From: an uncultured Acidobacteriaceae bacterium
GTDB lineage: Bacteria; Acidobacteriota; Terriglobia; Terriglobales; Acidobacteriaceae
Assembly: GCA_963794965.1 (NCBI GenBank)
Contig: CAWCFQ010000004.1
Span: 654,789 to 718,788, forward strand
Length of the DNA stretch: 64,000 nt
Direction of reading: 5' to 3'
Within the stretch, counting starts at the first letter, position 1, and each line of letters starts with the position of its first letter. The translations under genes and the position numbers were made by a program. This document shows positions 3,975 to 44,023 of the stretch, piece by piece. Below the pieces are notes generated by a model. The model saw only the letters and a program-made list of their open reading frames with translations, searched no databases and was not told where the DNA came from.

Positions 3975-4472
3975 TCACAACTTGTTCAGATAATCCGTCA
4001 CTTCCGGACTCGTCCAATCCACGGGCCCGATAAACTTGCGCCGGATCACGCCGCCACGGTCGATTACGTAGGTTTCCGGCCATCCAAACGTGCCATAGAG
4101 CGAAGCCGCCTTCTTCGCCTCATCCCGCACCGTGACCATGTTGACACGATAGTCCTTGAGGAACTTGTGGTACGCCGCGTCATCAGCGTCAATGCTAACC
4201 GCCAGCACCACGACGCCCTTATCCTTGAGGCGCGCCTGCATCTGAACCAGCGATGGAGTCTCTTCGACACAGGGCGGGCACCATGTAGCCCAGAAATTCA
4301 GCACCACCACCTGCCCGCGAAACTGGCTGAGCGTGACTTTGTGGTCGGAATCCTGCAAGGTAAAGTCCGGGGCGTTCGAACCGATGCGCGCGGGATGGCT
4401 CCCGCTGTAGCATCCGATCAGCGCAAGCAGCAATCCAATCGTTAGCGGCGTGAAAAGGAGCGTTTGTCTCAC
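3975..4472 (-). CDS. TlpA/ResA-family thiol-disulfide oxidoreductase (thioredoxin fold), probable lipoprotein
   Basis: Carries the WATWCPPCVEE active-site motif and the signal LLFTPLTIGLLLALIGC with a lipobox. The ORF track starts at 4508 (GTG), which overlaps the divergent GT2 start. The GTG at 4472 gives a cleaner signal peptide. Confidence 0.8.
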   Translation of the reverse strand: MRQTLLFTPLTIGLLLALIGCYSGSHPARIGSNAPDFTLQDSDHKVTLSQFRGQVVVLNFWATWCPPCVEETPSLVQMQARLKDKGVVVLAVSIDADDAAYHKFLKDYRVNMVTVRDEAKKAASLYGTFGWPETYVIDRGGVIRRKFIGPVDWTSPEVTDYLNKL

Positions 4473-32881: not shown

Positions 32882-32966
32882 GCGGAAGTGGTGGAACTGG
32901 CAGACACACCATCTTGAGGGGGTGGCGCCGAAAGGCGTGGGGGTTCAAATCCCCCCTTCCGCACCA
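32882..32966 (+). tRNA. tRNA-Leu (anticodon GAG), class II with long variable arm
   Basis: GCGGAAGTGGTGGAACTGGCAGACACACCATCTTGAGGGGGTGGCGCCGAAAGGCGTGGGGGTTCAAATCCCCCCTTCCGCACCA. Anticodon stem CCATC/GGTGG with loop TTGAGGG, variable stem-loop CGCCGAAAGGCG, and an encoded CCA. Confidence 0.93.
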
Positions 32967-33066: not shown

Positions 33067-34185
33067 ATGTTGAGCGTCTACACTCGTCACTACCCTCCTT
33101 GCGCGCAGTCAGATCCCTATTACAGGCGTTGCCACTGCCCGAAATGGATCATGGGCACTGTCGAAACGACAGGCGCCTTCGTGCGCGTCAGCGCCCGCAC
33201 TCGCGCCTGGGAAAAGGCGGAAAAGAAGGCGCGGCTGATGGAGGCGGAGGCGGCCGACCCCACGCCGGCACGCGTGACCGCAGAGGCCGCGCTCGACGCA
33301 TTCATCGCAAGGAAGCAGGGACAGCGGTTATCGCATAGCTGGCTCTACAAATTTTCGTTGATGCAGCGTGAGCTGGTTAGCTTTGCGCAGGGTCGAGGCC
33401 TGACCTACATTGACGAATTCACGGACGACGAACTTGGCCTGCTCAGTCGATCCTGGAAGGTCGCACCCATCACCGCCCAGAAACGGCAGGAACGCTGGCA
33501 CTCGTTTTTCTCCTACTGTGTGCGTAAATGCTGGCTGAAACAGAACCCGGTCGAAGAATTGGGCTCAATCAAGGTCCGACCTGTCCCCACTGATTATTTT
33601 TCGCAAGAAGAGTTTCAGAAGTTGGTGAACGTAACCTACGATCTGTCTCATTGGAGCACGAATCCTGGACACAGGGTCCGAGTGCGGGGCCTCTTGCTTC
33701 TCATGCGCTACAGCGGACTGCGCCTGAATGATGCGGTAACACTTGAGCGGGCGCGCCTGACGGAAAATCGCCTGTTTCTATACCAGCAGAAAACAGGGCT
33801 GCCAGTATACGTACCGCTGCCGCCTCACGTAGTCGAGCTTTTGAGGACAGTCGAAAACACCAATTCGCGCTACTTCTTCTGGACTGGAAATGGGTTGCAT
33901 TATCGCGCCAGCAATTGCTGGCACGCCAGTTTGCAGCGCCTCTTCAAGTGGGCAAAACTCGACAAGAGGGCTCACCCCCACATGCTCCGGGACACTTTTG
34001 CCGTAGAACTACTGTTGGCAGGCGTTCCCATTGACCAAGTGTCCATTCTGCTGGGACACGCTAGCGTGAAGACCACTGAGCGGCATTACGCTCCTTTCGT
34101 CAAGGCCCGTCAGGAGCAATTAGTTTCGTCCGTGGAAAAGAGCTGGCGGCTCCAGGGACTGCGGCTCGTGAAGAAGCACGCTTAG
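33067..34185 (+). CDS. int: Tyrosine-type site-specific recombinase/integrase
   Basis: RYSGLRLNDA (Arg I), HMLRDTF (HxxR) and LLGHASVKTTERHY (His/Tyr) motifs. It lies next to a tRNA. Confidence 0.92.
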   Translation: MLSVYTRHYPPCAQSDPYYRRCHCPKWIMGTVETTGAFVRVSARTRAWEKAEKKARLMEAEAADPTPARVTAEAALDAFIARKQGQRLSHSWLYKFSLMQRELVSFAQGRGLTYIDEFTDDELGLLSRSWKVAPITAQKRQERWHSFFSYCVRKCWLKQNPVEELGSIKVRPVPTDYFSQEEFQKLVNVTYDLSHWSTNPGHRVRVRGLLLLMRYSGLRLNDAVTLERARLTENRLFLYQQKTGLPVYVPLPPHVVELLRTVENTNSRYFFWTGNGLHYRASNCWHASLQRLFKWAKLDKRAHPHMLRDTFAVELLLAGVPIDQVSILLGHASVKTTERHYAPFVKARQEQLVSSVEKSWRLQGLRLVKKHA

Positions 34186-34221
34186 CAACTCTCGGCCCTT
34201 TGCAGCAACCGTCGATAATCG

Positions 34222-34512
34222 TCAGCTTGCTTTTCGAAGCTTGCGATGTACGCGATGAAGAACCGTTTCTGGCACGCGCAACGTGCGATATCCGCGCTTG
34301 TGCAACTTCTCTTCCCTGCTCCAGCGGATTACGCCCGGTTCCCGTTCAAAAATCCTTCGCACTGTCTTCTCACTGAGCGCCCAAAGTTTGGCGATCTCGA
34401 TCACCGAGTAGTGCTTCTCATTCGCCAAATCGAAAGGGCCTAATGATGACCCGACGGAAACCGGACGGAAACCGTCAGACGGCTCTATTGGTCTTCTAGC
34501 GGAGTCAGACAT
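34222..34512 (-). CDS. Helix-turn-helix DNA-binding protein, excisionase-like (HTH_17-type)
   Basis: YSVIEIAKLWALSEKTVRRIFEREPGVIRW matches the excisionase-family HTH pattern. It is convergent with and adjacent to int. Confidence 0.6.
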   Translation of the reverse strand: MSDSARRPIEPSDGFRPVSVGSSLGPFDLANEKHYSVIEIAKLWALSEKTVRRIFEREPGVIRWSREEKLHKRGYRTLRVPETVLHRVHRKLRKAS

Positions 34513-34725
34513 GGTACAAGCCTCAACCGCAGCTGGATGTTAACCAACTTGATTCCACATGCTTAAATTGTCCAATGAATTCTCGGGCGACACCTATTCC
34601 CAACAGGAATAGCTGGGTCAGAAATGACCGATACTCCCCTCGTATGCTGCCTTTGTTGATCGGCTGATGCGAGGTGAAACAAGAGACCCGCGCCAGCGAG
34701 GACGCCAGCGCGGGCTTAACGTTGC

Positions 34726-35091
34726 TCAGTACTCGCTCGGCAAGTGGATCACGTTGTTGGCGAAGTACAGCGTGATTTCATCCAGCGGAAAATCCGTGTG
34801 CTCGATCACCTTGCTGAACACGATGTTGCCGTTGCCATCATCGCACGTAAGCGTAGCGGTTCGGTCGGGACGTACGGCGAGCTTCCAGACCTGAAATTCC
34901 TGGGCGGCAACAGCCTTGTTATAGGGCTGAATGATCGCGATTTCGTCCAGAAGCCAATACGCCCCACCGCGCTCGGCAACGTACTGCGCGCCGTCGGTAT
35001 AGAGAACGTTGCGGTTGATCCCGTGCCGATACCAGTTTTCGCTGCCGGTGAACTGCGCGAGGTCGTTCTTGCTGAGAGTCTTCGTCGTCAT
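34726..35091 (-). CDS. DUF6876-like protein (family seen on plasmids/ICEs)
   Basis: Starting at ATG 35091: MTTKTLSKNDLAQFTGSENWYRHGINRNVLYTDGAQYVAERGGAYWLLDEIA. The pattern is recalled for DUF6876 and has not been searched. Confidence 0.6.
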   Translation of the reverse strand: MTTKTLSKNDLAQFTGSENWYRHGINRNVLYTDGAQYVAERGGAYWLLDEIAIIQPYNKAVAAQEFQVWKLAVRPDRTATLTCDDGNGNIVFSKVIEHTDFPLDEITLYFANNVIHLPSEY

Positions 35092-35454
35092 GGTTTGCCT
35101 CTTTTCTTGATGTGACCCCCACGACGGGGGCGAGAGAGGCAATAGGAACAGCCGCACTGGAGGCGCGGCGTCACAGGCAACCGTGGAATAAATGAGGGGC
35201 AGCCCGTAGGGAATCATCGTTTATGCCGCGAAAGTGCCTTGACGCAAGCCTGCGGCTGTTAAGTTGACTCCGAACCCGTCCGTTAGTGGGTCACAGGAAG
35301 AGGCACGATGACGAGGACCATACGTCGGCGAGGTCGCGAATCCCACAACGCACGGAATGGTGACAGTTCTCGACGAGGACATCCCCTTTTGAGGAAGACA
35401 GGCTGGTAAGCTAGGTCCTAGCAGTGACGGTAACTCTAGTTGGAAGGCGTAGGT

Positions 35455-36501
35455 ATGAGAGTTGCACGGCTGGAGATCAGGAATTTTCGCGGTATCAAGA
35501 GCGCCTGTCTTGACTTCGCCGGTCATACCCTGCTCCTCGGTATGAACAATGTCGGAAAGTCCACCGTCTGCGAAGCCCTCGAATTAGTGCTTGGCCCGGA
35601 GCGTCTGTCAAGGTTTCCTCCAGTCGAGGAATTTGATTTTTACAACGCGCGATACCTTGAGGATGATGGCGAGACACCAATCCCGATTGAGATCGATGTA
35701 ACGTTGACCGAACTCTCCGAGGAAGTCGCCAACAAGTGCGCTCCACACGCTCATCATTGGCATTTAGACAAAAAAGATGTCCTGGGTCAGGGCGAGGCTG
35801 ATGTCGTCGATGATCCCCGCGTATGCGAATGTCTCAGGCTCAAAACTATCGCTTCGTACAATCGGGAGGAAGACGAGTTTGAGGCCCAAACGTTTTTCGT
35901 CGACGGCCCGCCGAATTCCGAGGGCGGGCTTGCCGGAGTTCCAAGAAACATAAAACGGCTCTTCGGCTTCTTGTATCTACGCGCTCTTCGCACCGGATCC
36001 CGCGCGTTGAGTCTTGAGCGTGGGTCACTTCTGGACATCATCCTCAAACAACGTGACATTCGCACAGGGATCTGGGAAACCACCATCAAGCGGCTAAGAG
36101 AGCTTGACCCTCCAATCCACGAGGGGGCCGCCGATTTGGGGCCGGTGTTGGAAAATATCGAAAAACGCCTTGGCCAGTATATCCACCTGGAAACAAATGG
36201 TCCCGCCACGCAGCTTTTCGTGTCGCAGTTGACGCGAGAGCACCTCAGAAAGACAATTAGTTTCTTCCTTAAAACGTCGGCCGGTCAGGACCCGGTTCCC
36301 TTCCAGGAGGTCGGCACGGGCACGCTCAATACGCTTGTTCTCGCGTTGCTGACTTTTATCGCCGAGATTAAGAAAGACAATGTGATCTTTGCCATGGAGG
36401 AACCGGAGATTGCCCTACCCCCGCACACGCAACGGCGCATTGCCAATTACCTGCTCCAAAACACAACGCAGTGCTTGGTCACCTCTCATTCACTGACCTG
36501 A
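35455..36501 (+). pseudogene. OLD/AAA15-type ABC ATPase, 3'-truncated by an IS element
   Basis: RLEIRNFRGIKS, Walker A GMNNVGKST, Walker B VIFAMEEPEIALPP and H-loop LVTSHS. The ORF then reads L-T-stop from the IS terminal repeat TGACCTGA. No Toprim or other C-terminal domain follows. Confidence 0.8.
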
Positions 36502-36541
36502 CCGGGAAAATTTGTACCAAGTGGAATGAGAGAGAATCCAC

Positions 36542-36838
36542 TTGGAGGAAAAGCAGGTCATGCCCATCCAGAGGTACAAGCCAGAGCAAATCGTGACGAT
36601 GCTGCGGCAGATTGAAGTGAGCATCGCGAACGGAAAAACCACCCCACAAGCCTGCAAGGAAGCCGGGATCACCATGCAGACGTTCTACCGCTGGCGGAAG
36701 GAATACGGCGGTTTGAAGATGGACCAGGCCAAGCGGCTGAAAGAACTGGAGAAAGAGAACGGCAAGTTGAAACGGCTGGTCGCGGAGCTGTCGTTGGACA
36801 AGCAGATCCTGAAGGATATTGCGGAGGGAAACTTCTAA
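36542..36838 (+). CDS. IS3-family transposase OrfA (HTH plus leucine zipper)
   Basis: KPEQIVTMLRQIEV, FYRWRKEYGGLKMDQAKRLKELEKENGKLKRLVAELSLDKQILK. Confidence 0.9.
   Translation: MEEKQVMPIQRYKPEQIVTMLRQIEVSIANGKTTPQACKEAGITMQTFYRWRKEYGGLKMDQAKRLKELEKENGKLKRLVAELSLDKQILKDIAEGNF
36826..36832 (+). promoter_or_regulatory. Candidate -1 programmed frameshift heptamer G_GGA_AAC
   Basis: X_XXY_YYZ motif in the orfA zero frame, 3 nt before the orfA stop codon (36836-36838). The -1 frame continues GKLLSPERRRCAVEH into orfB with no stop. Confidence 0.6.
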
Positions 36839-36888
36839 GCCCGGAGCGACGTCGGTGCGCCGTAGAGCATGCCCGCGAGGAGTATGAA

Positions 36889-37761
36889 GTGAGTGAGCGG
36901 CGGGCGTGCCGAGTGGTGCGGCAATGGCGAGGAACACAACGCTATGTGCCGCTGCGGCGCACGGACGAAGACGAGCTAACGCAGGCGATCCTGGCCCTGG
37001 CGGCGAAGTATGGGCGGTACGGCTACCGGCGCATCACGGTGCTGTTGCGGGATGCGGGGTGGCCGGTGGGGAAGGATCGAGTGCAGCGGATCTGGCGACG
37101 TGAAGGGCTGAAGGTACCGCAGAAACAGCGGCCACGAGGGCGGTTGTGGCTGGGCGATGGTTCGTGCGTACGGTTGCGACCGGAGCGGGCGAATCATGCG
37201 TGGAGCTACGATTTTGTGAAAGCGATGACGCACGATGGACGAGCGCTGCGTATCCTGGTGCTGATCGACGAGTATACGCGGGAGTGCTTGGCGTTGCGGG
37301 TGGCACGGCGCTTGGGGAGTTTGCAGGTGATCGAAACGTTGGCGGATGTGATGTTGCTGCGCGGGATCCCAGAGCACATCCGTTCGGACAATGGGCCGGA
37401 GTTCATTGCCAAAGAGTTGCGGAAGTGGCTGGGAAAGCTGGGCACGAAAACGCTCTATATCGAGCCTGGGAGCCCGTGGGAGAACGGGTACTGTGAGAGT
37501 TTCAACGGGAAGCTGCGAGATGAGTTCTTGAATGGCGAGATCTTCTACTCGCTGAAGGAGGCACAGATTCTGACGGAGAGGTGGCGCGTGGAATACAACA
37601 CGGAACGGCCGCACTCGGCACTGGGCTACAGACCACCGGCGCCACAAGCCATCTTGCCGAACCAAGAGGGGCATGGAGATATGGAAAACGCTTCGCGTTT
37701 CCCACATCCCCACACCCCCGGCGACGACTACGGACAATTGTCCAAAGAGGCGTTACACTAA
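36889..37761 (+). CDS. IS3-family transposase OrfB (DDE integrase core)
   Basis: WSYDFV, LIDEYTRECL, IRSDNGPEF and PGSPWENGYCESFNGKLRDEFLN motifs. Probably expressed as an OrfAB fusion. Confidence 0.9.
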   Translation: MSERRACRVVRQWRGTQRYVPLRRTDEDELTQAILALAAKYGRYGYRRITVLLRDAGWPVGKDRVQRIWRREGLKVPQKQRPRGRLWLGDGSCVRLRPERANHAWSYDFVKAMTHDGRALRILVLIDEYTRECLALRVARRLGSLQVIETLADVMLLRGIPEHIRSDNGPEFIAKELRKWLGKLGTKTLYIEPGSPWENGYCESFNGKLRDEFLNGEIFYSLKEAQILTERWRVEYNTERPHSALGYRPPAPQAILPNQEGHGDMENASRFPHPHTPGDDYGQLSKEALH

Positions 37762-37786
37762 CATTCCACTTGGTACAAAAGATCGG

Positions 37787-38194
37787 TCAGGTCACCCACG
37801 CGCACCACTCCACGGCCTTTGTCAAGCGACTTTCACGGTGTTTGTCGAAAGCCTCAGCATTGTTTCTCAAATAAAACTCGTCGAGGTATGGAACCATTCC
37901 CTCAAGCGCGAGGATGCTGATTCGGAACGAAACCAGTGTGACCAAGATGCACAGTAGGAAGGCAACCCATGACGCTAAAAGCGACGGAATCCAAACAGCC
38001 CGTCCAATTGGAGCGACATCTTTGATGAACGCCAACGACAGACCGAGTGCTCCGCTTGAGAATGTCAGAAGATACTTGTCGAAGTTTTCGGTGCCTGACT
38101 TGGTGTCTTCCCACACTTTCTTCCGGTACTCGTCATGCAACTCTTCCGGTCTGGTCTTGTCTGCCATGCTGTCAGTCGCGCCTCGCCGCGACAA
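37787..38194 (-). CDS. Small two-TM protein, last gene of an uncharacterised operon; 3' end supplied by the IS terminal repeat
   Basis: Two hydrophobic helices (LLTFSSGALGLSLAFI and WIPSLLASWVAFLLCILVTLVSF). The final codons V-T-stop come from the IS IRR (boundary at 37794/37795). The start is TTG 38194 or ATG 38167. Confidence 0.55.
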   Translation of the reverse strand: MSRRGATDSMADKTRPEELHDEYRKKVWEDTKSGTENFDKYLLTFSSGALGLSLAFIKDVAPIGRAVWIPSLLASWVAFLLCILVTLVSFRISILALEGMVPYLDEFYLRNNAEAFDKHRESRLTKAVEWCAWVT

Positions 38195-38239
38195 TGATTA
38201 TTAGGTTGCCCAGCGAACTCGAATAGCGTTCCCTGGACG

Positions 38240-39118
38240 TTATATGCCGGGCCAATTCTCGGATGAGAAATACTCAAATATCGCGTGTGCCACAACCAAG
38301 GCGAATCGGGCGTCCTGGCGAGAGATGGGCGTCGGGCTTTGCGCTGTTGGCAGTGGCTCGTGTGGGCCGAGATGTAGGAACTGGCGGAACGCGGCGAATG
38401 AATCCAGAAGTTTGTCACGAACACCTGCGTGGGCGTGAGCGAGCATCTTCTCCCACGTACTTCTATCGATCTCCTTTGCCGAGTAGCACTCTGCCATCGC
38501 GTTGAATGCTGAACGCAATTCCGTCAACACATGAGGATAGTCCCCAATTCGGTAAAGTTCCTCAGCCCGTCCTAGTCGCGCACGCGCCGTCGCCATTTCC
38601 TTTCGGCTGTCTCCGGGGAAGTTGACCTCAAGCAATCTCAGGTCAGATACTCCCCAAGCCTTCAGCGCCGTATCAATCCAGTGCGAACGTGGAACTGTGA
38701 CCTGAAGAGTCATATCCTGTAGCCGTTCAAATTCGTTGGTCTGTTTCAAGGCTACCAACCCGGACAAGATGATTCTCAAGAGCAGATTGCTTCCGCTGCG
38801 AAGTTCTTCGATATGTTTTATCTGCGTCAGCGTCAGCGGCACGCTCAAGTTCACTGTTCGGTCATAGGGATTCGGCATCGAATCTTCGGCTATAGGCGGA
38901 TGCTCGACCGTCGCCACAGGGTGATTTTCATTCGACACGTAAATCTTGCCGCTCACTCTCAATAGCGTGTAGGTTGTCGGGCCGAGCGGGAGAAGTTGGA
39001 ACTTCAGCCCCAAGACCAATTGAGGATTCGCTGGCCCGCCCGTTCCGATAATGTCGGTCGATTCAAGACGAACTCGTCCGACCCCGTTCCCTTTGACAGT
39101 AAACGTAGTTTCACTCAT
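38240..39118 (-). CDS. Uncharacterised protein: beta-rich N-domain plus helical C-domain with a DUF4145-like pattern
   Basis: 292 aa with ATG 5 nt after the upstream stop. The C-terminal pattern is RAEELYRIGDYPHVLTELRSAFNAM...FRQFLHLGPHE...ISRQDARFALVVAHAIFEYF. Confidence 0.65.
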   Translation of the reverse strand: MSETTFTVKGNGVGRVRLESTDIIGTGGPANPQLVLGLKFQLLPLGPTTYTLLRVSGKIYVSNENHPVATVEHPPIAEDSMPNPYDRTVNLSVPLTLTQIKHIEELRSGSNLLLRIILSGLVALKQTNEFERLQDMTLQVTVPRSHWIDTALKAWGVSDLRLLEVNFPGDSRKEMATARARLGRAEELYRIGDYPHVLTELRSAFNAMAECYSAKEIDRSTWEKMLAHAHAGVRDKLLDSFAAFRQFLHLGPHEPLPTAQSPTPISRQDARFALVVAHAIFEYFSSENWPGI

Positions 39119-39123
39119 CGGAT

Positions 39124-39624
39124 TTACCGAGTGGTTCTGGCGAGGTCTCGCATTTTTCTGACAGTCAACTCTGCCATCTTCTCAGGCGTCACAACGCTGT
39201 CCCCGTATCCAATTCCGACTTCACTGTCGTGGTTCAGACGAAAGTGAAAAAGAAGTTCCGGCTGCTCCCATACGACAAGCCGGATTCCTTGGGGCGAGTA
39301 GTGGAAATTCCAGCTTATGATGTTCGGCCGGTAGCGGATGTTGTGCCACGTGACGTTGACTTGGCAACTTGTCGTCCCTTGTGGAGATGTGCTCCCAGAG
39401 AGTTCTTCACCCACAAGGTTCGGCAGAGCGTCAGTGTTGACTTTGAGTTCTTTGAGAAAACGCTGGAATACCTCCGGCCCTTGATTCGCAACTCGCCCCG
39501 CTGCGTCTACGGCTCGTTGGCTACGAGCCTCAGCCTCAGCAGCGGCACGATGGGTTGCCGCGTTCTGTTGCTCAATCCATTCGGTACTCACAAGCAAGAA
39601 TCCTCTACCGCAACAGTAGCACAA
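39124..39624 (-). CDS. Uncharacterised protein
   Basis: 166-aa ORF from TTG 39624. The GTG at 39591 is preceded by AGAGGA and is the more likely start. No family recognised. Confidence 0.55.
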   Translation of the reverse strand: MCYCCGRGFLLVSTEWIEQQNAATHRAAAEAEARSQRAVDAAGRVANQGPEVFQRFLKELKVNTDALPNLVGEELSGSTSPQGTTSCQVNVTWHNIRYRPNIISWNFHYSPQGIRLVVWEQPELLFHFRLNHDSEVGIGYGDSVVTPEKMAELTVRKMRDLARTTR

Positions 39625-39961
39625 TTCTATAGCGAATCAAAGGCGAAAGGGCGTAGGATGCCGGAATGGACGAGAGTCGTAAGAGAGTCATCGGGGCCGG
39701 GCGGCGATTCTGGCGAGTCTCCACATGCAGACGGCGGATGATTTGTTCGGAGGTCCGCAAGGAAGCCCACGAACGGACAAACTCATCGCCGCAAGCATTC
39801 ATTGGGCTGAGAAAATCATGGCGAAGATCGATGAGGTCTTCGGACGGTAGGCTTCGCAACAGGACGGCAGGATGGTATCGGAATGCGGACTCCGTTGCGG
39901 AGATTCTGTCTAAATGGGGAGGCAGAGCAATTGCTTTCGGGACGTGGGCGCACGAGGTCAT
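39605..39961 (-). CDS. Possible first small ORF of the operon
   Basis: 118-aa ORF starting at ATG 39961. Its composition is better than that of the Arg-rich overlapping plus-strand ORF, but the C-terminal third looks non-protein-like. Confidence 0.3.
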   Translation of the reverse strand: MTSCAHVPKAIALPPHLDRISATESAFRYHPAVLLRSLPSEDLIDLRHDFLSPMNACGDEFVRSWASLRTSEQIIRRLHVETRQNRRPAPMTLLRLSSIPASYALSPLIRYRIVLLLR

Positions 39962-40302: not shown

Positions 40303-40326
40303 GTTCAAATCCCCCCTTCCGCACCA
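40303..40326 (+). repeat. attR-type direct repeat (copy of the tRNA-Leu 3' end)
   Basis: Exact 24-nt match to 32943-32966. Confidence 0.9.
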
Positions 40327-40736: not shown

Positions 40737-40855
40737 GTGTCAGGTCTCAGGTCCCAGGAAAGCCAAAATCTGAACGTTCGGATTTCAAGCTTCTCGCATT
40801 TACGTCTACCCGCACAGAGTTCTTCCTGCGACCTGACACCTGAGACCTGACACCT
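40737..40855. repeat. Word hairpin with long spacer, GTGTCAGG / CCTGAGAC family
   Basis: Left arm is gtgtcaggtctcaggtcccagg followed by aaagcc. Right arm is cctgcgacctgacacctgagacctgacacct. It lies between convergent secG and an MBL hydrolase and overlaps the hydrolase stop codon. Confidence 0.65.
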
Positions 40856-41492
40856 AGCCTTTCAGAAACGGATTCTCTTCCCTTTCCTCTCCAATGGTCG
40901 TACGTGGCCCGTGCCCCGGAATCACAATCGTCTCATCCGGCAGCGTTAGCACTCGTTCGTGCAGCGAGCGCATGATTTTCTCGAACGAGCCTCCTGGTAG
41001 ATCGGTGCGTCCAATGCTGCCGGCGAACAGCGTGTCGCCCGCGATTAGCATTTGTTCCGCGGGGAAATAGAGGCAAACGCTGCCCTCGGTGTGTCCCGGC
41101 GTGTGGAGAACGTTCGCGGTCAAGCTGCCAGTCCGCAGTCGTTCGCCATCCGCGATACTCGCTTCGATCGCAACTTCACCCGGCGCGGCCATGCCTACCC
41201 ATGTAGCCTGCACGTCAAGCATCTTCAGCAGCGCGTAGTCATTCTGATTAAGCAGGATGGGCGCGCCAGTAACCGCACGCAGCTTCATCGCTCCGCCCAC
41301 GTGATCGATGTGCGCGTGGGTGATGACGATTTGCTTCACCGCCAGCTTGTGCTGGCGGACGATGGTAAGAACGTCCTCAATGTCGTCACCCGGATCGATG
41401 ACCATGGCTTCGTGCGTGGTCTCATCGCCGATGATCGAGCAGTTGCATTGCAGCGGGCCGACAGGAAGGATCTTGTGAATCATCCGATCCAT
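40854..41492 (-). CDS. MBL-fold metallo-hydrolase (glyoxalase II-like)
   Basis: ITHAHIDHVGG, HTPGHTEGS and GDTLF motifs. Confidence 0.88.
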   Translation of the reverse strand: MDRMIHKILPVGPLQCNCSIIGDETTHEAMVIDPGDDIEDVLTIVRQHKLAVKQIVITHAHIDHVGGAMKLRAVTGAPILLNQNDYALLKMLDVQATWVGMAAPGEVAIEASIADGERLRTGSLTANVLHTPGHTEGSVCLYFPAEQMLIAGDTLFAGSIGRTDLPGGSFEKIMRSLHERVLTLPDETIVIPGHGPRTTIGEEREENPFLKG

Positions 41493-41501
41493 TGTAAAGA
41501 A

Positions 41502-41595
41502 GTTAGAGGTCAGAAGTCAGATTGCAGAAGTAAAACCCGCGAACTCTTGACCAAAGGGTTTTACTTCTGCAATCTGACCTCTAACCTCTGACCTC
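41502..41595. repeat. Long hairpin with 23-bp perfect stem plus GAGGTCAGA word arms
   Basis: gtcagattgcagaagtaaaaccc (41516-41538) pairs perfectly with gggttttacttctgcaatctgac (41556-41578) around a 17-nt loop. The flanks are gttagaggtcagaa / ctctaacctctgacctc. Confidence 0.8.
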
Positions 41596-41597
41596 GC

Positions 41598-42773
41598 CTA
41601 CGATGCCACCTCAATCTGCCCCGTAGTCTGATCCGACCGAAAGCGCAGCAGCGCCGCGATGTTCCCGGCGTTATCCAGATCGCTGTGTTCCTTGAGGTAG
41701 AACAATTCGATGTCGCGACGGATCGCGATCGGAATGATGGCATCCGAGACGTCGGCGAGTTCGCGAGTGCGGCTTCCGCAAGCCACGCACAACGGGACGA
41801 CATGCGCATCGATGTGGCCGCAATTCGGGCACTCAACCGCCCGAGCCGAATAGTTTTCAGCGAGAAAAATGCTCTGCACTTCCCCGGTTTCCAATGCGCG
41901 CAGCACGCGGCGCAGGCCGGTGACCCCGCGTCCGTTGGACTTGGCAAGATCCACCGCTTCGCTCGCCTTCCGCGAAGCGCGTTCCGCCATCCAGCGATTC
42001 AGGACGGCGCCGGCGTGATCGCGAATCTCTTCATTCGAAACGCTGGCAACGTCAGCAGAGAATCGCCCAATCAAGCGCTGCTTCACGTAAGGATGCAGGT
42101 GGGCCTCGAACTCCGGCCAGTTGGCATCCTGGCAACCGACAATGAGCCGCTCCCAGATACCTTTTTCGAAGTCGATCCGCAAGCGCTCGGAAACCGACTT
42201 GAAATGCTGGAGCGCTTCTTCTGACACACGCCGTTCCGCATGTCCGCCTTCGTAGCCGTTGTATCCGTAGCTGGAAGCGTTGCGCGAGAGCATATGGACT
42301 ATGGCTCCGCGTTCCCGCAGATCATCCAGTCGGAGATCAAAGATGCGGGCCCGCTGCCGGTCGACCATGGCCACGCACAGCGCCGGTTGCGCTCCCAGCA
42401 AAGCTGCCAGCGGTTTCAACTGAAAGCGGGGTTGAAGATAAATTTGCGTGCCTCCAAGATGCGGCGGCAATTCGTACTCCCTCCAGAAATTCTGAGCCGA
42501 GCAGGCGAACACTGCCCTTCCGCGGGCATTCCCGCGCAGGTTCGTGGCCACCTCCAGCACGCGATCCAGGTCGGCATGCAGCGATCCGTTCTTGCCGATC
42601 GCGGCCGCGCTTTTCAGCGCCTGCTTCACCACATCTTTGGCAACAATGACCTCACGGCGATGCGAGCGATCCTGCGGAGGATCGGGCTGGAAGTAGAAAC
42701 TCAGGGCACACGCCCCTTTGTTTTCGTCCACTTGAAAGGCCGCCAACTCACGGATTTCATCCCGGGTCATCAT
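41598..42773 (-). CDS. eRF1/Pelota-like (baeRF-type) protein with C-terminal zinc ribbon
   Basis: N-terminus ACALSFYFQPDPP...R is typical of bacterial aeRF1-like families. GLRRVLRALETGEVQSIFL resembles eRF1 domain 3. A CPNCGH...CVACGS ribbon is present. Assignment is from recalled patterns only. Confidence 0.6.
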   Translation of the reverse strand: MMTRDEIRELAAFQVDENKGACALSFYFQPDPPQDRSHRREVIVAKDVVKQALKSAAAIGKNGSLHADLDRVLEVATNLRGNARGRAVFACSAQNFWREYELPPHLGGTQIYLQPRFQLKPLAALLGAQPALCVAMVDRQRARIFDLRLDDLRERGAIVHMLSRNASSYGYNGYEGGHAERRVSEEALQHFKSVSERLRIDFEKGIWERLIVGCQDANWPEFEAHLHPYVKQRLIGRFSADVASVSNEEIRDHAGAVLNRWMAERASRKASEAVDLAKSNGRGVTGLRRVLRALETGEVQSIFLAENYSARAVECPNCGHIDAHVVPLCVACGSRTRELADVSDAIIPIAIRRDIELFYLKEHSDLDNAGNIAALLRFRSDQTTGQIEVAS

Positions 42774-42814
42774 CTCGACGCTCCTTAAATACTGAGATGC
42801 TGGTTCTGAGCCGC

Positions 42815-43861
42815 TTAGATTCGAGTTTTGACCAAGAGTTCCTGGTGGAACTCGTTGGCAATGGAAGGCGCGGAGCGAACGCAGTCGCGCGCCCGCTGCA
42901 CGGACTCGCGCACCGCCTCCACATGCCGCCCGGTGATGGCGGCAATTTCGTTGAGGGAAAAGCCTTCTATGCCGTAAAGCAGGAAAGCTTCACGGTCGGT
43001 GCGGTCGGCCCCGCGGAGAGCGGCTTGCACCAAAGCAATCACTTCGTCGGAGTACGCCGCCTGCTCCGGAGTAGACACCCGGCGATCGGGGATAGCGCTT
43101 TCCCGCGTCCAACCCTCGTCCGGCTGATGGAATTGCAATCCAACTTCGTCCGAAGCTTGGACATTCTGACGGCGGCGGCTGTCTTCGAGATGCAGAGCCT
43201 CGGGACTCTCCAATTCACGAAGGCGCGCCGTCATCTCGTTCATCGCTTGCAGGGCAAGGTGGTAAAGCCAAGGCTCGAGCGATAGTTTTTCCGGACGGTC
43301 GTTACCCCCGAGAGCTCGCGCGATGACTTCGTTCACCACCTCGGGGGTGGAGAGACCATCCTCCGGAATCTCCTCGTCGGCGCGGCGGAAATGGAGCTCC
43401 CGCTCCACAAAACGCTCGAGGCGGCCAAGGTTCACGTTCACATAGGAGCCGATATCGTCGGCGGAAATCGTAGGCGGCATGACCGCTGCCAGCGTCTGCT
43501 CGAAGGGCACGCCGGGCTCCGGAGATTCCTGCGCCCCTCCGCGCCAGCGCCGCCATTTGTGGCTCGAGCGCAGCAATTCCTTATGCCGCCCGATCTGCTG
43601 GATGAGTTCGTCGAAGGCAGCCTTGATGGCCGCGGTGGCGCTGGGAGCTTTCTCTTGGACCGTCAGTTGGCCCGAGGGCAAACGCAGATTCAAGGAGACC
43701 AGCGTTCCAGGGCGCGTCGAATTCTGATCGACAATGGCTTTCAAATGAACCAGTTCAGGCCGGAAGACCTGAATCCGCTTCTGAATTTTTTCGATCTGGT
43801 GGCTGATTTCTTTTTCGATGTCGGGAGTTTTGTGGACCTTGTAACTGACGTGAACGTTCAT
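42815..43861 (-). CDS. Fusion protein: N-terminal HPF/RaiA (S30AE) ribosome-hibernation domain plus C-terminal ECF-sigma-like regions 2 and 4
   Basis: From ATG 43861, MNVHVSYKVHKTPDIEKEISHQIEKIQKRIQVF...LNLRLPSGQLTVQEKAPSATAAIKAAFDELIQQIGRHKELL is collinear with E. coli HPF. The C-terminus carries PWLYHLALQAMNEM (region 2-like) and REAFLLYGIEGFSLNEIAAITGRHVEAVRESVQRARDCV (region 4 HTH). Confidence 0.7.
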   Translation of the reverse strand: MNVHVSYKVHKTPDIEKEISHQIEKIQKRIQVFRPELVHLKAIVDQNSTRPGTLVSLNLRLPSGQLTVQEKAPSATAAIKAAFDELIQQIGRHKELLRSSHKWRRWRGGAQESPEPGVPFEQTLAAVMPPTISADDIGSYVNVNLGRLERFVERELHFRRADEEIPEDGLSTPEVVNEVIARALGGNDRPEKLSLEPWLYHLALQAMNEMTARLRELESPEALHLEDSRRRQNVQASDEVGLQFHQPDEGWTRESAIPDRRVSTPEQAAYSDEVIALVQAALRGADRTDREAFLLYGIEGFSLNEIAAITGRHVEAVRESVQRARDCVRSAPSIANEFHQELLVKTRI

Positions 43862-44023
43862 TTTCGAGCCTCGAACCCGGAAAGAAAGTCCGTGAAGCTG
43901 CGACCCTGACAAATTCATTGTACACCCGGTCGGAAGGAGCGAAACCGCCTTTGGTGGCAAGGTGGCATCCCGGCTCTCATCTTCAAATGGGGGCAGGACT
44001 ACGCGTCATTAAGAGAATCAGAT

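Follow-up and report, generated by a model that had tools for sequence, protein, structure and literature searches.

Does the tightly packed run of minus-strand genes at positions 37787-39961 of the window, the whole stretch of 64,000 nucleotides (nt) analysed here from an uncultured Acidobacteriaceae bacterium (contig CAWCFQ010000004.1), form an unrecognised anti-phage operon, and does this operon still work? A sequence-only reading had proposed a candidate novel defence or abortive-infection (Abi) module of three to four genes. That proposal is supported in part, through the gene of a 292-amino acid (aa) protein, whose family recurs beside defence genes elsewhere; the local copy is degraded, and its genes form no conserved operon. 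The locus is probably a defence module in decay, with a function suggested by sequence comparison; the most fitting description is that of a region of decayed defence cargo rather than of a novel system at work.

All four minus-strand open reading frames (ORFs) expected from the earlier reading are present with their lengths (37787-38194, 38240-39118, 39124-39624 and 39605-39961), and the spacing of 13, 5 and 45 nt is recovered if the ORF at 39124-39624 is given its 155-aa start. Three of them are real genes, namely those of the 155-aa protein, the 292-aa protein and a transmembrane (TM) protein, but the fourth, a 118-aa ORF, was rejected as a gene, with a ratio of nonsynonymous to synonymous substitution rates (dN/dS) of 1.37 in its frame against locus L018 (loci compared with the window carry L numbers). 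No family had been recognised for the 118-aa, 155/166-aa and TM proteins, and Pfam, NCBIfam, PHROGs and PADLOC gave no match at E<=1 beyond noise for any of the four. The features are as follows.

37787-38167, minus strand: TM gene, the 5' two-thirds of a gene for a 3-TM membrane protein; ATG at 38167, native sequence stops at 37795
38240-39118, minus strand: 292-aa gene, intact (homologues, models, dN/dS)
39124-39591, minus strand: 155-aa gene, GTG start at 39591 (homologues, dN/dS)
39605-39961, minus strand: 118-aa ORF, non-gene, an antisense shadow of a 61-aa gene

Family, fold and motifs of the 292-aa protein

The 292-aa gene is under purifying selection (dN/dS 0.10 against three relatives). 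Its close relatives form 67 clusters with 44-100% identity and lengths of 290-299 aa, and the addition of a clade with 32-38% identity brings the family to 176 clusters. In a profile search of 1.84 billion representatives, 1,423 of them (clusters at 50% identity) were found at E<=1e-3 and 385 at E<=1e-10, nearly all with 280-335 aa and matched end to end. The named members belong to metagenome-assembled genomes (MAGs) of Acidobacteriota and to one Dormibacteria MAG. Relatives of the close and the 32-38% clades carry no Pfam domain or functional name, distant representatives likewise have no functional name on record, and PADLOC gave no match for the distant homologue of L042. No relative was found in IMG/VR or, with three queries, in PLSDB, and the fold search of BFVD returned nothing at E<=1e-3. 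The scan of GTDB genomes gave only 4 loci because its peptide patterns fit just the two nearer clades.

The beta-rich N-domain and helical C-domain proposed earlier were recovered in the AlphaFold2 model of the whole protein, with a predicted local distance difference test (pLDDT) value of 85. The parts of the model, including an immunoglobulin-like (Ig-like) domain, are the following.

Residues 1-142: N-domain, Ig-like beta-sandwich (AlphaFold2)
Residues 143-155: conserved linker helix VPRSHWID (AlphaFold2 and alignment)
Residues 173-286: C-domain, five-helix bundle of HEPN fold (AlphaFold2)

With the whole protein, Foldseek retrieved from the PDB only generic Ig-like sandwiches (the TMEM106B luminal domain, Af_0446, ApaG, arrestin and the Kir cytoplasmic domain). 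The HEPN signal arose only with a separate model of the C-domain (pLDDT 88), which shows the four-helix up-down bundle of the HEPN type and for which ranks 1, 3, 4, 5 and 6 are the HEPN structures 2hsb, 1ufb, 1wol, 1o3u and 3o10 (sacsin). Similarly, the family profile matches the PDB HEPN protein 1ufb over the full length of the domain (E 0.017) and, weakly, an AbiJ_NTD4 protein; the profile of the C-domain retrieved designed helical proteins only among the PDB sequences. PF05168 (HEPN) is matched by 22 of 110 distant family members (best 3.8e-6), DUF4145 by four of them at E<=1 and HEPN_Apea by one. The best match to DUF4145 (PF13643), from P0164, covers model positions 2-87 of 88 with E 0.005 and 17.3 bits, and the gathering cut-off of 23.1 is not reached. 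Fold and distant homology suggest that the C-domain belongs to the HEPN superfamily (clan CL0291) and is DUF4145-like, an assignment supported at the superfamily level. The earlier comparison with DUF4145-type modules holds at this level, through Foldseek and PF05168, but not at the level of DUF4145 itself.

His253, within LGPHE, is conserved in 97/110 relatives. The Arg of the canonical Rx4-6H motif, four to six residues before this His, occurs in just 7/110 relatives of alignment A5, in 13/32 of A3 and in 10/36 of A1, and is absent from the window protein (FRQFLHLGPH). The R-x6-H spacing (R271...H278) that had been regarded as compatible with a HEPN motif is not retained, H278 being replaced by Y or Q in many relatives. 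The strongest conservation family-wide lies outside the HEPN domain, at E104, R107, S145, W147 (PRSHW helix) and E164.

Neighbouring genes and the role proposed for the family

In the 32-38% clade, the family gene overlaps the end of a Type IIG restriction-modification (R-M) gene by 4 nt in at least 7 loci, among them L038, L039, L041, L042, L044 and L058, and fragments of Type IIG genes lie beside it in L010, L011 and L036. The enzyme of this clade has 994-1070 aa, matches PDLC03604 at 1.3e-191 and comprises Eco57I/MmeI/TaqI_C/HSDR_N domains. The downstream gene starts -4 to +180 nt from the family gene and encodes an HNH_5 protein (L011 and L044, and L058 after a 224-aa gene), a 412-aa TIR/nucleoside-deoxyribosyltransferase-like protein (sub-threshold in Pfam; PADLOC TIR effector at 3e-7) or a DUF6988-like protein.

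Other neighbours are found in the remaining loci. For instance, L001-4 and L008 of the close clade have a divergent DUF5677 gene and DUF2513 upstream, and HKD-Snf2, a different Type IIG enzyme (PDLC03628, 2.7e-281), a DprA-like gene and a TIR gene downstream. In L014, L016, L018, L019, L020, L043 and L050, also of the close clade, the ATG of a gene for a 221-aa protein with the sequence RNDLVH (R-x4-H) overlaps the stop of the family gene; the motif of this protein is taken as a lead only. Fusions of methyltransferase and Mrr are located near the family gene in L009 and L054. Abi_alpha, Fic, YhcG and ArdC are neighbours in L059, AbiJ_NTD4 in L060, an ABC-3C ATPase in L024, Trypsin_2 in L026 and HTH-Peptidase_M78 in L022.

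The close clade and the distant, Type IIG-linked clade have in common a further unannotated family, of 255-309 aa, which recurs in the vicinity of the 292-aa family genes. It has no Pfam or PADLOC match and may represent a further component. Its examples are:

L001 7648-8577, minus strand
L012 867-1787, minus strand
L038 3672-4439, minus strand
L044 6020-6895, minus strand

What has been observed are the structures of the genes and their truncations, the fold of the protein, and the size and neighbourhoods of its family. The reading that we prefer, with a probability of roughly 45%, is that the 292-aa protein serves as a sensor or adaptor with its output through the downstream gene, here leading to abortive infection by membrane damage; every functional step of it is inferred. 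The family would be an accessory sensor/adaptor of defence loci, in which binding of a partner, or of a signal from the invader, would fall to the Ig-like domain and the conserved PRSHW helix. The HEPN-like domain would either regulate or itself act as a non-canonical RNase, with the His kept and the canonical Arg lost. The output would pass through the gene immediately downstream, which in this lineage is the 3-TM protein, with a membrane lesion of the abortive-infection type as the predicted outcome, and in other lineages an HNH nuclease, a TIR/deoxyribosyltransferase-like protein or the R-x4-H protein. Placed often directly after a Type IIG R-M gene, the module could provide a second line of defence, like PrrC-EcoprrI. 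Three features combined, namely a conserved two-domain protein, close translational coupling to R-M and a variable, effector-like downstream gene, are in keeping with the known theme of HEPN proteins as second-line or suicide partners of R-M (PMC3710099). The broader statement, that the family, widespread with its 1,400 or more clusters at 50% identity, consists of sensors/adaptors of a new modular defence with Type IIG upstream, interchangeable killers (3-TM, HNH, TIR-like, R-x4-H) downstream and an Arg-less HEPN domain, is doubtful.

Several observations weigh against the sensor/adaptor reading. The association with conflict genes (R-M, Abi, TIR, HNH, Fic, ABC-3C and Gabija genes were taken as such), which lie within a few kb in ~15 of ~19 non-redundant contexts, is a count of our own without a background rate, and the loci come almost all from soil Acidobacteriota metagenomes and are partly redundant. 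The variable neighbours may reflect simple shuffling within defence islands. Since the family gene also occurs alone among housekeeping genes, in L005-7 and L060, a dedicated downstream effector is not obligatory. The pairing of the 292-aa gene with the TM gene is seen in two loci only, both with the same insertion sequence (IS) and possibly of one lineage. As for the domains, the structural matches of the C-domain to HEPN proteins combine probabilities of 0.91-0.98 and TM-scores of 0.49-0.61 with weak E values of 0.17-0.53, and the window protein itself has no match to Pfam HEPN at E<=1, the link being transitive via distant relatives. RNase activity is doubtful because the canonical Rx4-6H is present in 7/110 relatives only. 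The RNDLVH protein could not be assigned to HEPN: it gave no match in Pfam, PADLOC or PDB, and an hhalign probability of 0.1 against the C-domain. Finally, PADLOC-DB v2.0.0 contains no match at E<=1 for the TM, 292-aa, 155/166-aa and 118-aa proteins.

The occurrence of the family gene alone in L005-7 (with only the divergent DUF5677 gene), L059 and L060, together with the change of the downstream gene between loci, is what would be expected if the HEPN protein were self-sufficient, a single-gene abortive-infection or toxin-like factor in the manner of AbiJ or BxaP, and its neighbours mere co-tenants of the island. Single-protein HEPN/DUF4145 defences do exist (PMC10799925). On the contrary, the 4-nt start/stop overlaps with Type IIG genes and the ATGA overlaps downstream argue for co-translation, most members are without the canonical HEPN Arg, and the top conserved residues (E104, R107, S145 and W147) are positioned outside the HEPN domain. 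We consider this explanation unlikely.

The same overlaps bear on a further alternative, in which the family would be a non-toxic accessory subunit of Type IIG enzymes (a regulator, a helper in DNA or target recognition, or an anti-restriction decoy) and the window copy a stray without its enzyme. The 4-nt overlap and the constant order after the 994-1070-aa genes in the 32-38% clade agree with such a subunit, as do the second, different Type IIG subfamily near the close clade and the HEPN domain without its catalytic Arg. However, many members have no R-M gene within 7-10 kb (the window, L005-7, L012, L059 and L060), and Type IIG enzymes have a TaqI_C-type specificity domain of their own. We consider the subunit very unlikely.

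Deletion, cassettes and island frame of the window locus

The part assigned to the TM protein in the sensor/adaptor reading can be followed in the window down to the point where its gene is cut. The 135-aa two-TM protein described earlier exists as an open frame (37787-38194, minus strand), but it is a truncated 3-TM gene with its stop inside the end of an IS. The intact homologue in L012 has ~207 aa and includes a third TM helix as well as a Pro-rich tail (sequence, hydrophobicity); the two proteins share 88% aa identity over residues 11-133 (tblastn), and the retained part has a dN/dS of 0.07. PADLOC gave PycTM alone for the full-length L012 protein (E 0.019). L012 is the one related locus in which the TM partner recurs, and there the pair has other upstream genes than in the window. 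The IS and the gene on its other side are:

36494-37794, plus strand: IS3-family insertion sequence, with orfA at 36542-36838, orfB at 36889-37761 and terminal inverted repeats
35440-36501, plus strand: truncated gajA, a Gabija OLD-family ATPase gene (PADLOC PDLC00086 and Pfam AAA_15/AAA_21)

The terminal inverted repeats of the element are TGACCTGACCG..., and a perfect 18-nt inverted repeat lies inside it. It is single-copy and has no target-site duplication (CAC on the left against CCC on the right). Its ends have entered the genes on both sides: the stop codon of the truncated gajA sits within one end, and the stop codon and last two codons of the TM ORF come from the other. A copy of the IS with 92% identity is located in L012 in the same orientation, 520 nt past the intact TM gene. 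A 775-bp deletion adjacent to the IS is deduced for the window because its collinearity with L012 (2855-4135) breaks at 4135 and resumes directly at the IS, at L012 4911. The deletion took TM codons ~134-207, which are the third TM helix and the Pro-rich tail, and the module in the window is very probably dead because the last third of the TM gene has been removed.

The neighbouring OLD-family ATPase mentioned in the sequence-only reading is indeed the N-terminal ABC ATPase half of GajA, the match to PDLC00086 (E 5.5e-149) comprising profile positions 1-341 of 600. The gene is cut at ~residue 351 of 600, the Toprim domain is absent, and no gajB was found among the window ORFs between the IS and the TM gene. 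Gabija is the sole recognisable defence system of the island, and it is dead because gajA is cut by the IS after the ATPase half, without Toprim or gajB.

In the case of the 155-aa gene, a version of 166 aa (39124-39624) would start at TTG, which is unlikely, and the sister contig L053 also has a 155-aa call for the same protein. Its dN/dS is 0.16-0.18 against two relatives. The family is small and acidobacterial, with 32 homologue clusters of 57-100% identity, none of them named. Elsewhere the gene is always second in a cassette (contexts L061-L064), after a 129-aa LRAT-like gene and before a variable third gene, which encodes 215 aa or a 258-aa DUF3800-like protein. The LRAT-like protein (PF04970, 33.9 bits against a cut-off of 24.3) has an NCEH motif and a C-terminal TM helix. 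Examples of the cassette are:

L061 5586-7151: LRAT-155-variable cassette
L063 5611-7265: LRAT-155-variable cassette

Integrases lie next to it, together with either a divergent 61-aa gene and DUF5677 or a 57-aa gene and others. PADLOC does not contain the cassette, a candidate module made up of a lipid-targeting effector or toxin and its partner. The 215- and 258-aa genes were also considered as members of the 292-aa family, and this was rejected.

DUF5677 proteins (259-307 aa) recur both beside the 292-aa gene (L001/L005/L012, divergent) and beside the LRAT-155 cassette (L063/L064 4425-5348). In the window, tblastn found no DUF5677 gene, and a remnant of it upstream was rejected, the matches being tblastn noise only. 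PADLOC has no match for DUF5677. A 2025 preprint selected this domain, with others, for anti-phage testing (PMC12632615).

The window has no LRAT-like gene, and its 155-aa gene, joined straight to a conserved leader, is an orphan from this different cassette. Among the 52 loci with the 292-aa family, tblastn found no 155-aa homologue, the TM protein once (L012) and the 118-aa frame once (L018, non-coding). The idea of a conserved operon is abandoned: the genes of the window are not a conserved unit because the 155-aa gene belongs elsewhere to the LRAT-like cassette and the 292-TM pair is repeated in one other locus only.

Upstream of the 155-aa gene, the 118-aa ORF overlaps two further features:

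39666-39850, plus strand: frameshifted 61-aa divergent gene, MDEGRKRVIGI...WAEKIM..ID..FG (homology, dN/dS)
39592-39665, minus strand: conserved leader/promoter region of ~75 nt (sequence comparison between loci)

The 61-aa gene on the opposite strand has a dN/dS of 0.04-0.06, the tblastx identity is 45% in the 118-aa frame against 80% in the opposite one, and Prodigal called nothing at the position of the 118-aa ORF on L053. The 61-aa protein is 88% identical to that of L063 5345-5530, and its gene in the window is frameshifted by a 1-nt deletion (DNA alignment). Elsewhere, islands carry it as the first gene of a minus-side operon that continues with DUF5677 or other genes. At ~39617-39821, the DNA beneath the 118-aa ORF is 78% identical to that directly upstream of the 292-aa gene in L018, L019, L020 and L027. 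The leader abuts the start codon of the 292-aa gene in these four loci and L012, and the GTG of the 155-aa gene in the window. On the minus strand, no sigma-70 promoter or terminator for the operon rose above shuffled expectation, and Rfam at E<=1 gave only tRNA and chance miRNA matches in the search for a non-coding RNA in the leader.

The 61-aa gene and the leader flank differing cargo, LRAT-155-X or 292-X, in several acidobacterial islands. Judging from these alignments, the site seems to serve one family of integrative islands as a cargo hotspot, because the same leader abuts the 155-aa gene in the window and the 292-aa gene elsewhere. The gene order of the window is the product of cassette shuffling.

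The tRNA island claimed earlier is borne out by the tRNA-Leu(gag) gene, a 24-nt repeat and an integrase. The frame of this integrative island, which measures 7.36 kb and is bounded by the 24-nt repeats, is:

32882-32966: tRNA-Leu(gag) (tRNA search)
32943-32966: attL, the 3' 24 nt of tRNA-Leu(gag)
33067-34185: tyrosine integrase, next to the tRNA-Leu end of the island
34726-35217, minus strand: DUF6876 gene (Pfam, E 4e-47)
40303-40326, plus strand: attR, 24-nt direct repeat of the 3' end of tRNA-Leu(gag) and right end of the island (repeat search)

Between the integrase and the DUF6876 gene, ~540 nt are without a called gene (region 34186-35217, before the truncated gajA). SecG begins immediately past attR. 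Further outside, at 40854-43960 on the minus strand, a hydrolase of the metallo-beta-lactamase (MBL) fold, a baeRF_family10 (bacterial eRF1-like) protein and a Sigma70_r4/PhyR-like protein with Ribosomal_S30AE are located, as annotated from the precomputed Pfam matches on L053. The MBL-fold hydrolase weakly matches Anti-Pycsar_Apyc1, and the baeRF and sigma-like pair may form a conflict or stress module of its own. L053 itself (ENA contig_74233), which is public and covers the same locus, is an assembly artefact in the form of a hairpin chimera: its sequence turns back inside the 292-aa gene, called there as 269 aa, and the SecG, MBL-fold and baeRF genes are repeated inverted.

Intact in the window are the 292-aa and 155-aa genes. 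Breaks affect the TM gene, gajA and the 61-aa gene, and no LRAT-like partner is present. This state of the island could also be read as a cluster without joint function and not anti-phage, a graveyard of unrelated cargo, for instance cassettes for toxin-immunity or addiction by which the element is stabilised, in which the 155-aa protein would be the orphan immunity protein or partner of an LRAT-like lipase toxin. Every gene has other partners elsewhere, the LRAT-like gene (NCEH, C-terminal TM) followed by the 155-aa gene resembles a toxin/partner pair, four island genes are broken if the missing LRAT-like gene is counted with gajA, the TM gene and the 61-aa gene, and integrases are present in all related islands. 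Element maintenance alone, however, hardly explains why the 292-aa family is repeatedly found in tight coupling with R-M and Abi genes, and purifying selection persists on the 292-aa and 155-aa genes. This view is quite unlikely, and the best explanation of the region is that it constitutes the cargo end of a small tRNA-Leu integrative island with the remains of several anti-phage or conflict cassettes.

Comparison with known systems

To our knowledge, Acidobacteriota are a soil phylum with little experimentally tested defence biology. If the sensor/adaptor reading is true, the 292-aa protein would mark a large family missed by Pfam, NCBIfam, PHROGs and PADLOC, would extend the R-M-coupled second-line defences by a new architecture (Ig-like sandwich with an Arg-less HEPN domain), and would offer a handle on defence in this phylum. 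The window copy is a decayed, IS-damaged mosaic, which lowers the value of this locus itself.

The nearest known relatives are the HEPN proteins linked to R-M systems, of which at least 16 clades have been described (Anantharaman et al. 2013, PMC3710099). Like PrrC/RloC, the 292-aa family has a C-domain of HEPN fold, is repeatedly in operons with R-M genes and resides on mobile islands; a back-up or suicide role is plausible. Unlike them, it has no ABC-ATPase domain, no anticodon-nuclease motif and no canonical Rx4-6H. It also differs from the R-M-linked HEPN clades by its Ig-like beta-sandwich N-domain, undescribed for those clades, and by a Type IIG partner instead of a Type I one. For BREX/Dnd proteins, a role in recognising the invader has been proposed for Ig-like sandwiches (PMC12839542).

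BxaP is a DUF4145 protein with demonstrated BREX-associated defence (PMC10799925). Similarly, the 292-aa family has a helical domain of the HEPN clan adjoining R-M or BREX-type methyltransferase-nucleases. However, its best DUF4145 score stays at 17.3 against 23.1 bits, PF05168 matches are 22 against four for DUF4145, and its HEPN-like domain is C-terminal behind a beta-sandwich, whereas BxaP has an N-terminal DUF4145 followed by a HEAT-like domain. With AbiJ the family shares the two-domain layout of a variable or recognition N-domain and a HEPN C-domain; its N-domain is a beta-sandwich and not AbiJ-NTD, its catalytic motif differs, and neither Pfam nor PADLOC gives an AbiJ match. As for Gabija, the neighbouring ORF is clearly the N-terminal ATPase of GajA, convergently transcribed and unrelated to the 292-aa operon.

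In conclusion, R-M-linked HEPN accessory or Abi proteins on mobile islands have been known as a general kind since 2013. What appears to be new is the combination of an Ig-like sandwich, a PRSHW helix and an Arg-less HEPN domain, the size of a family without a database model, and its coupling to Type IIG genes with swapped downstream genes.

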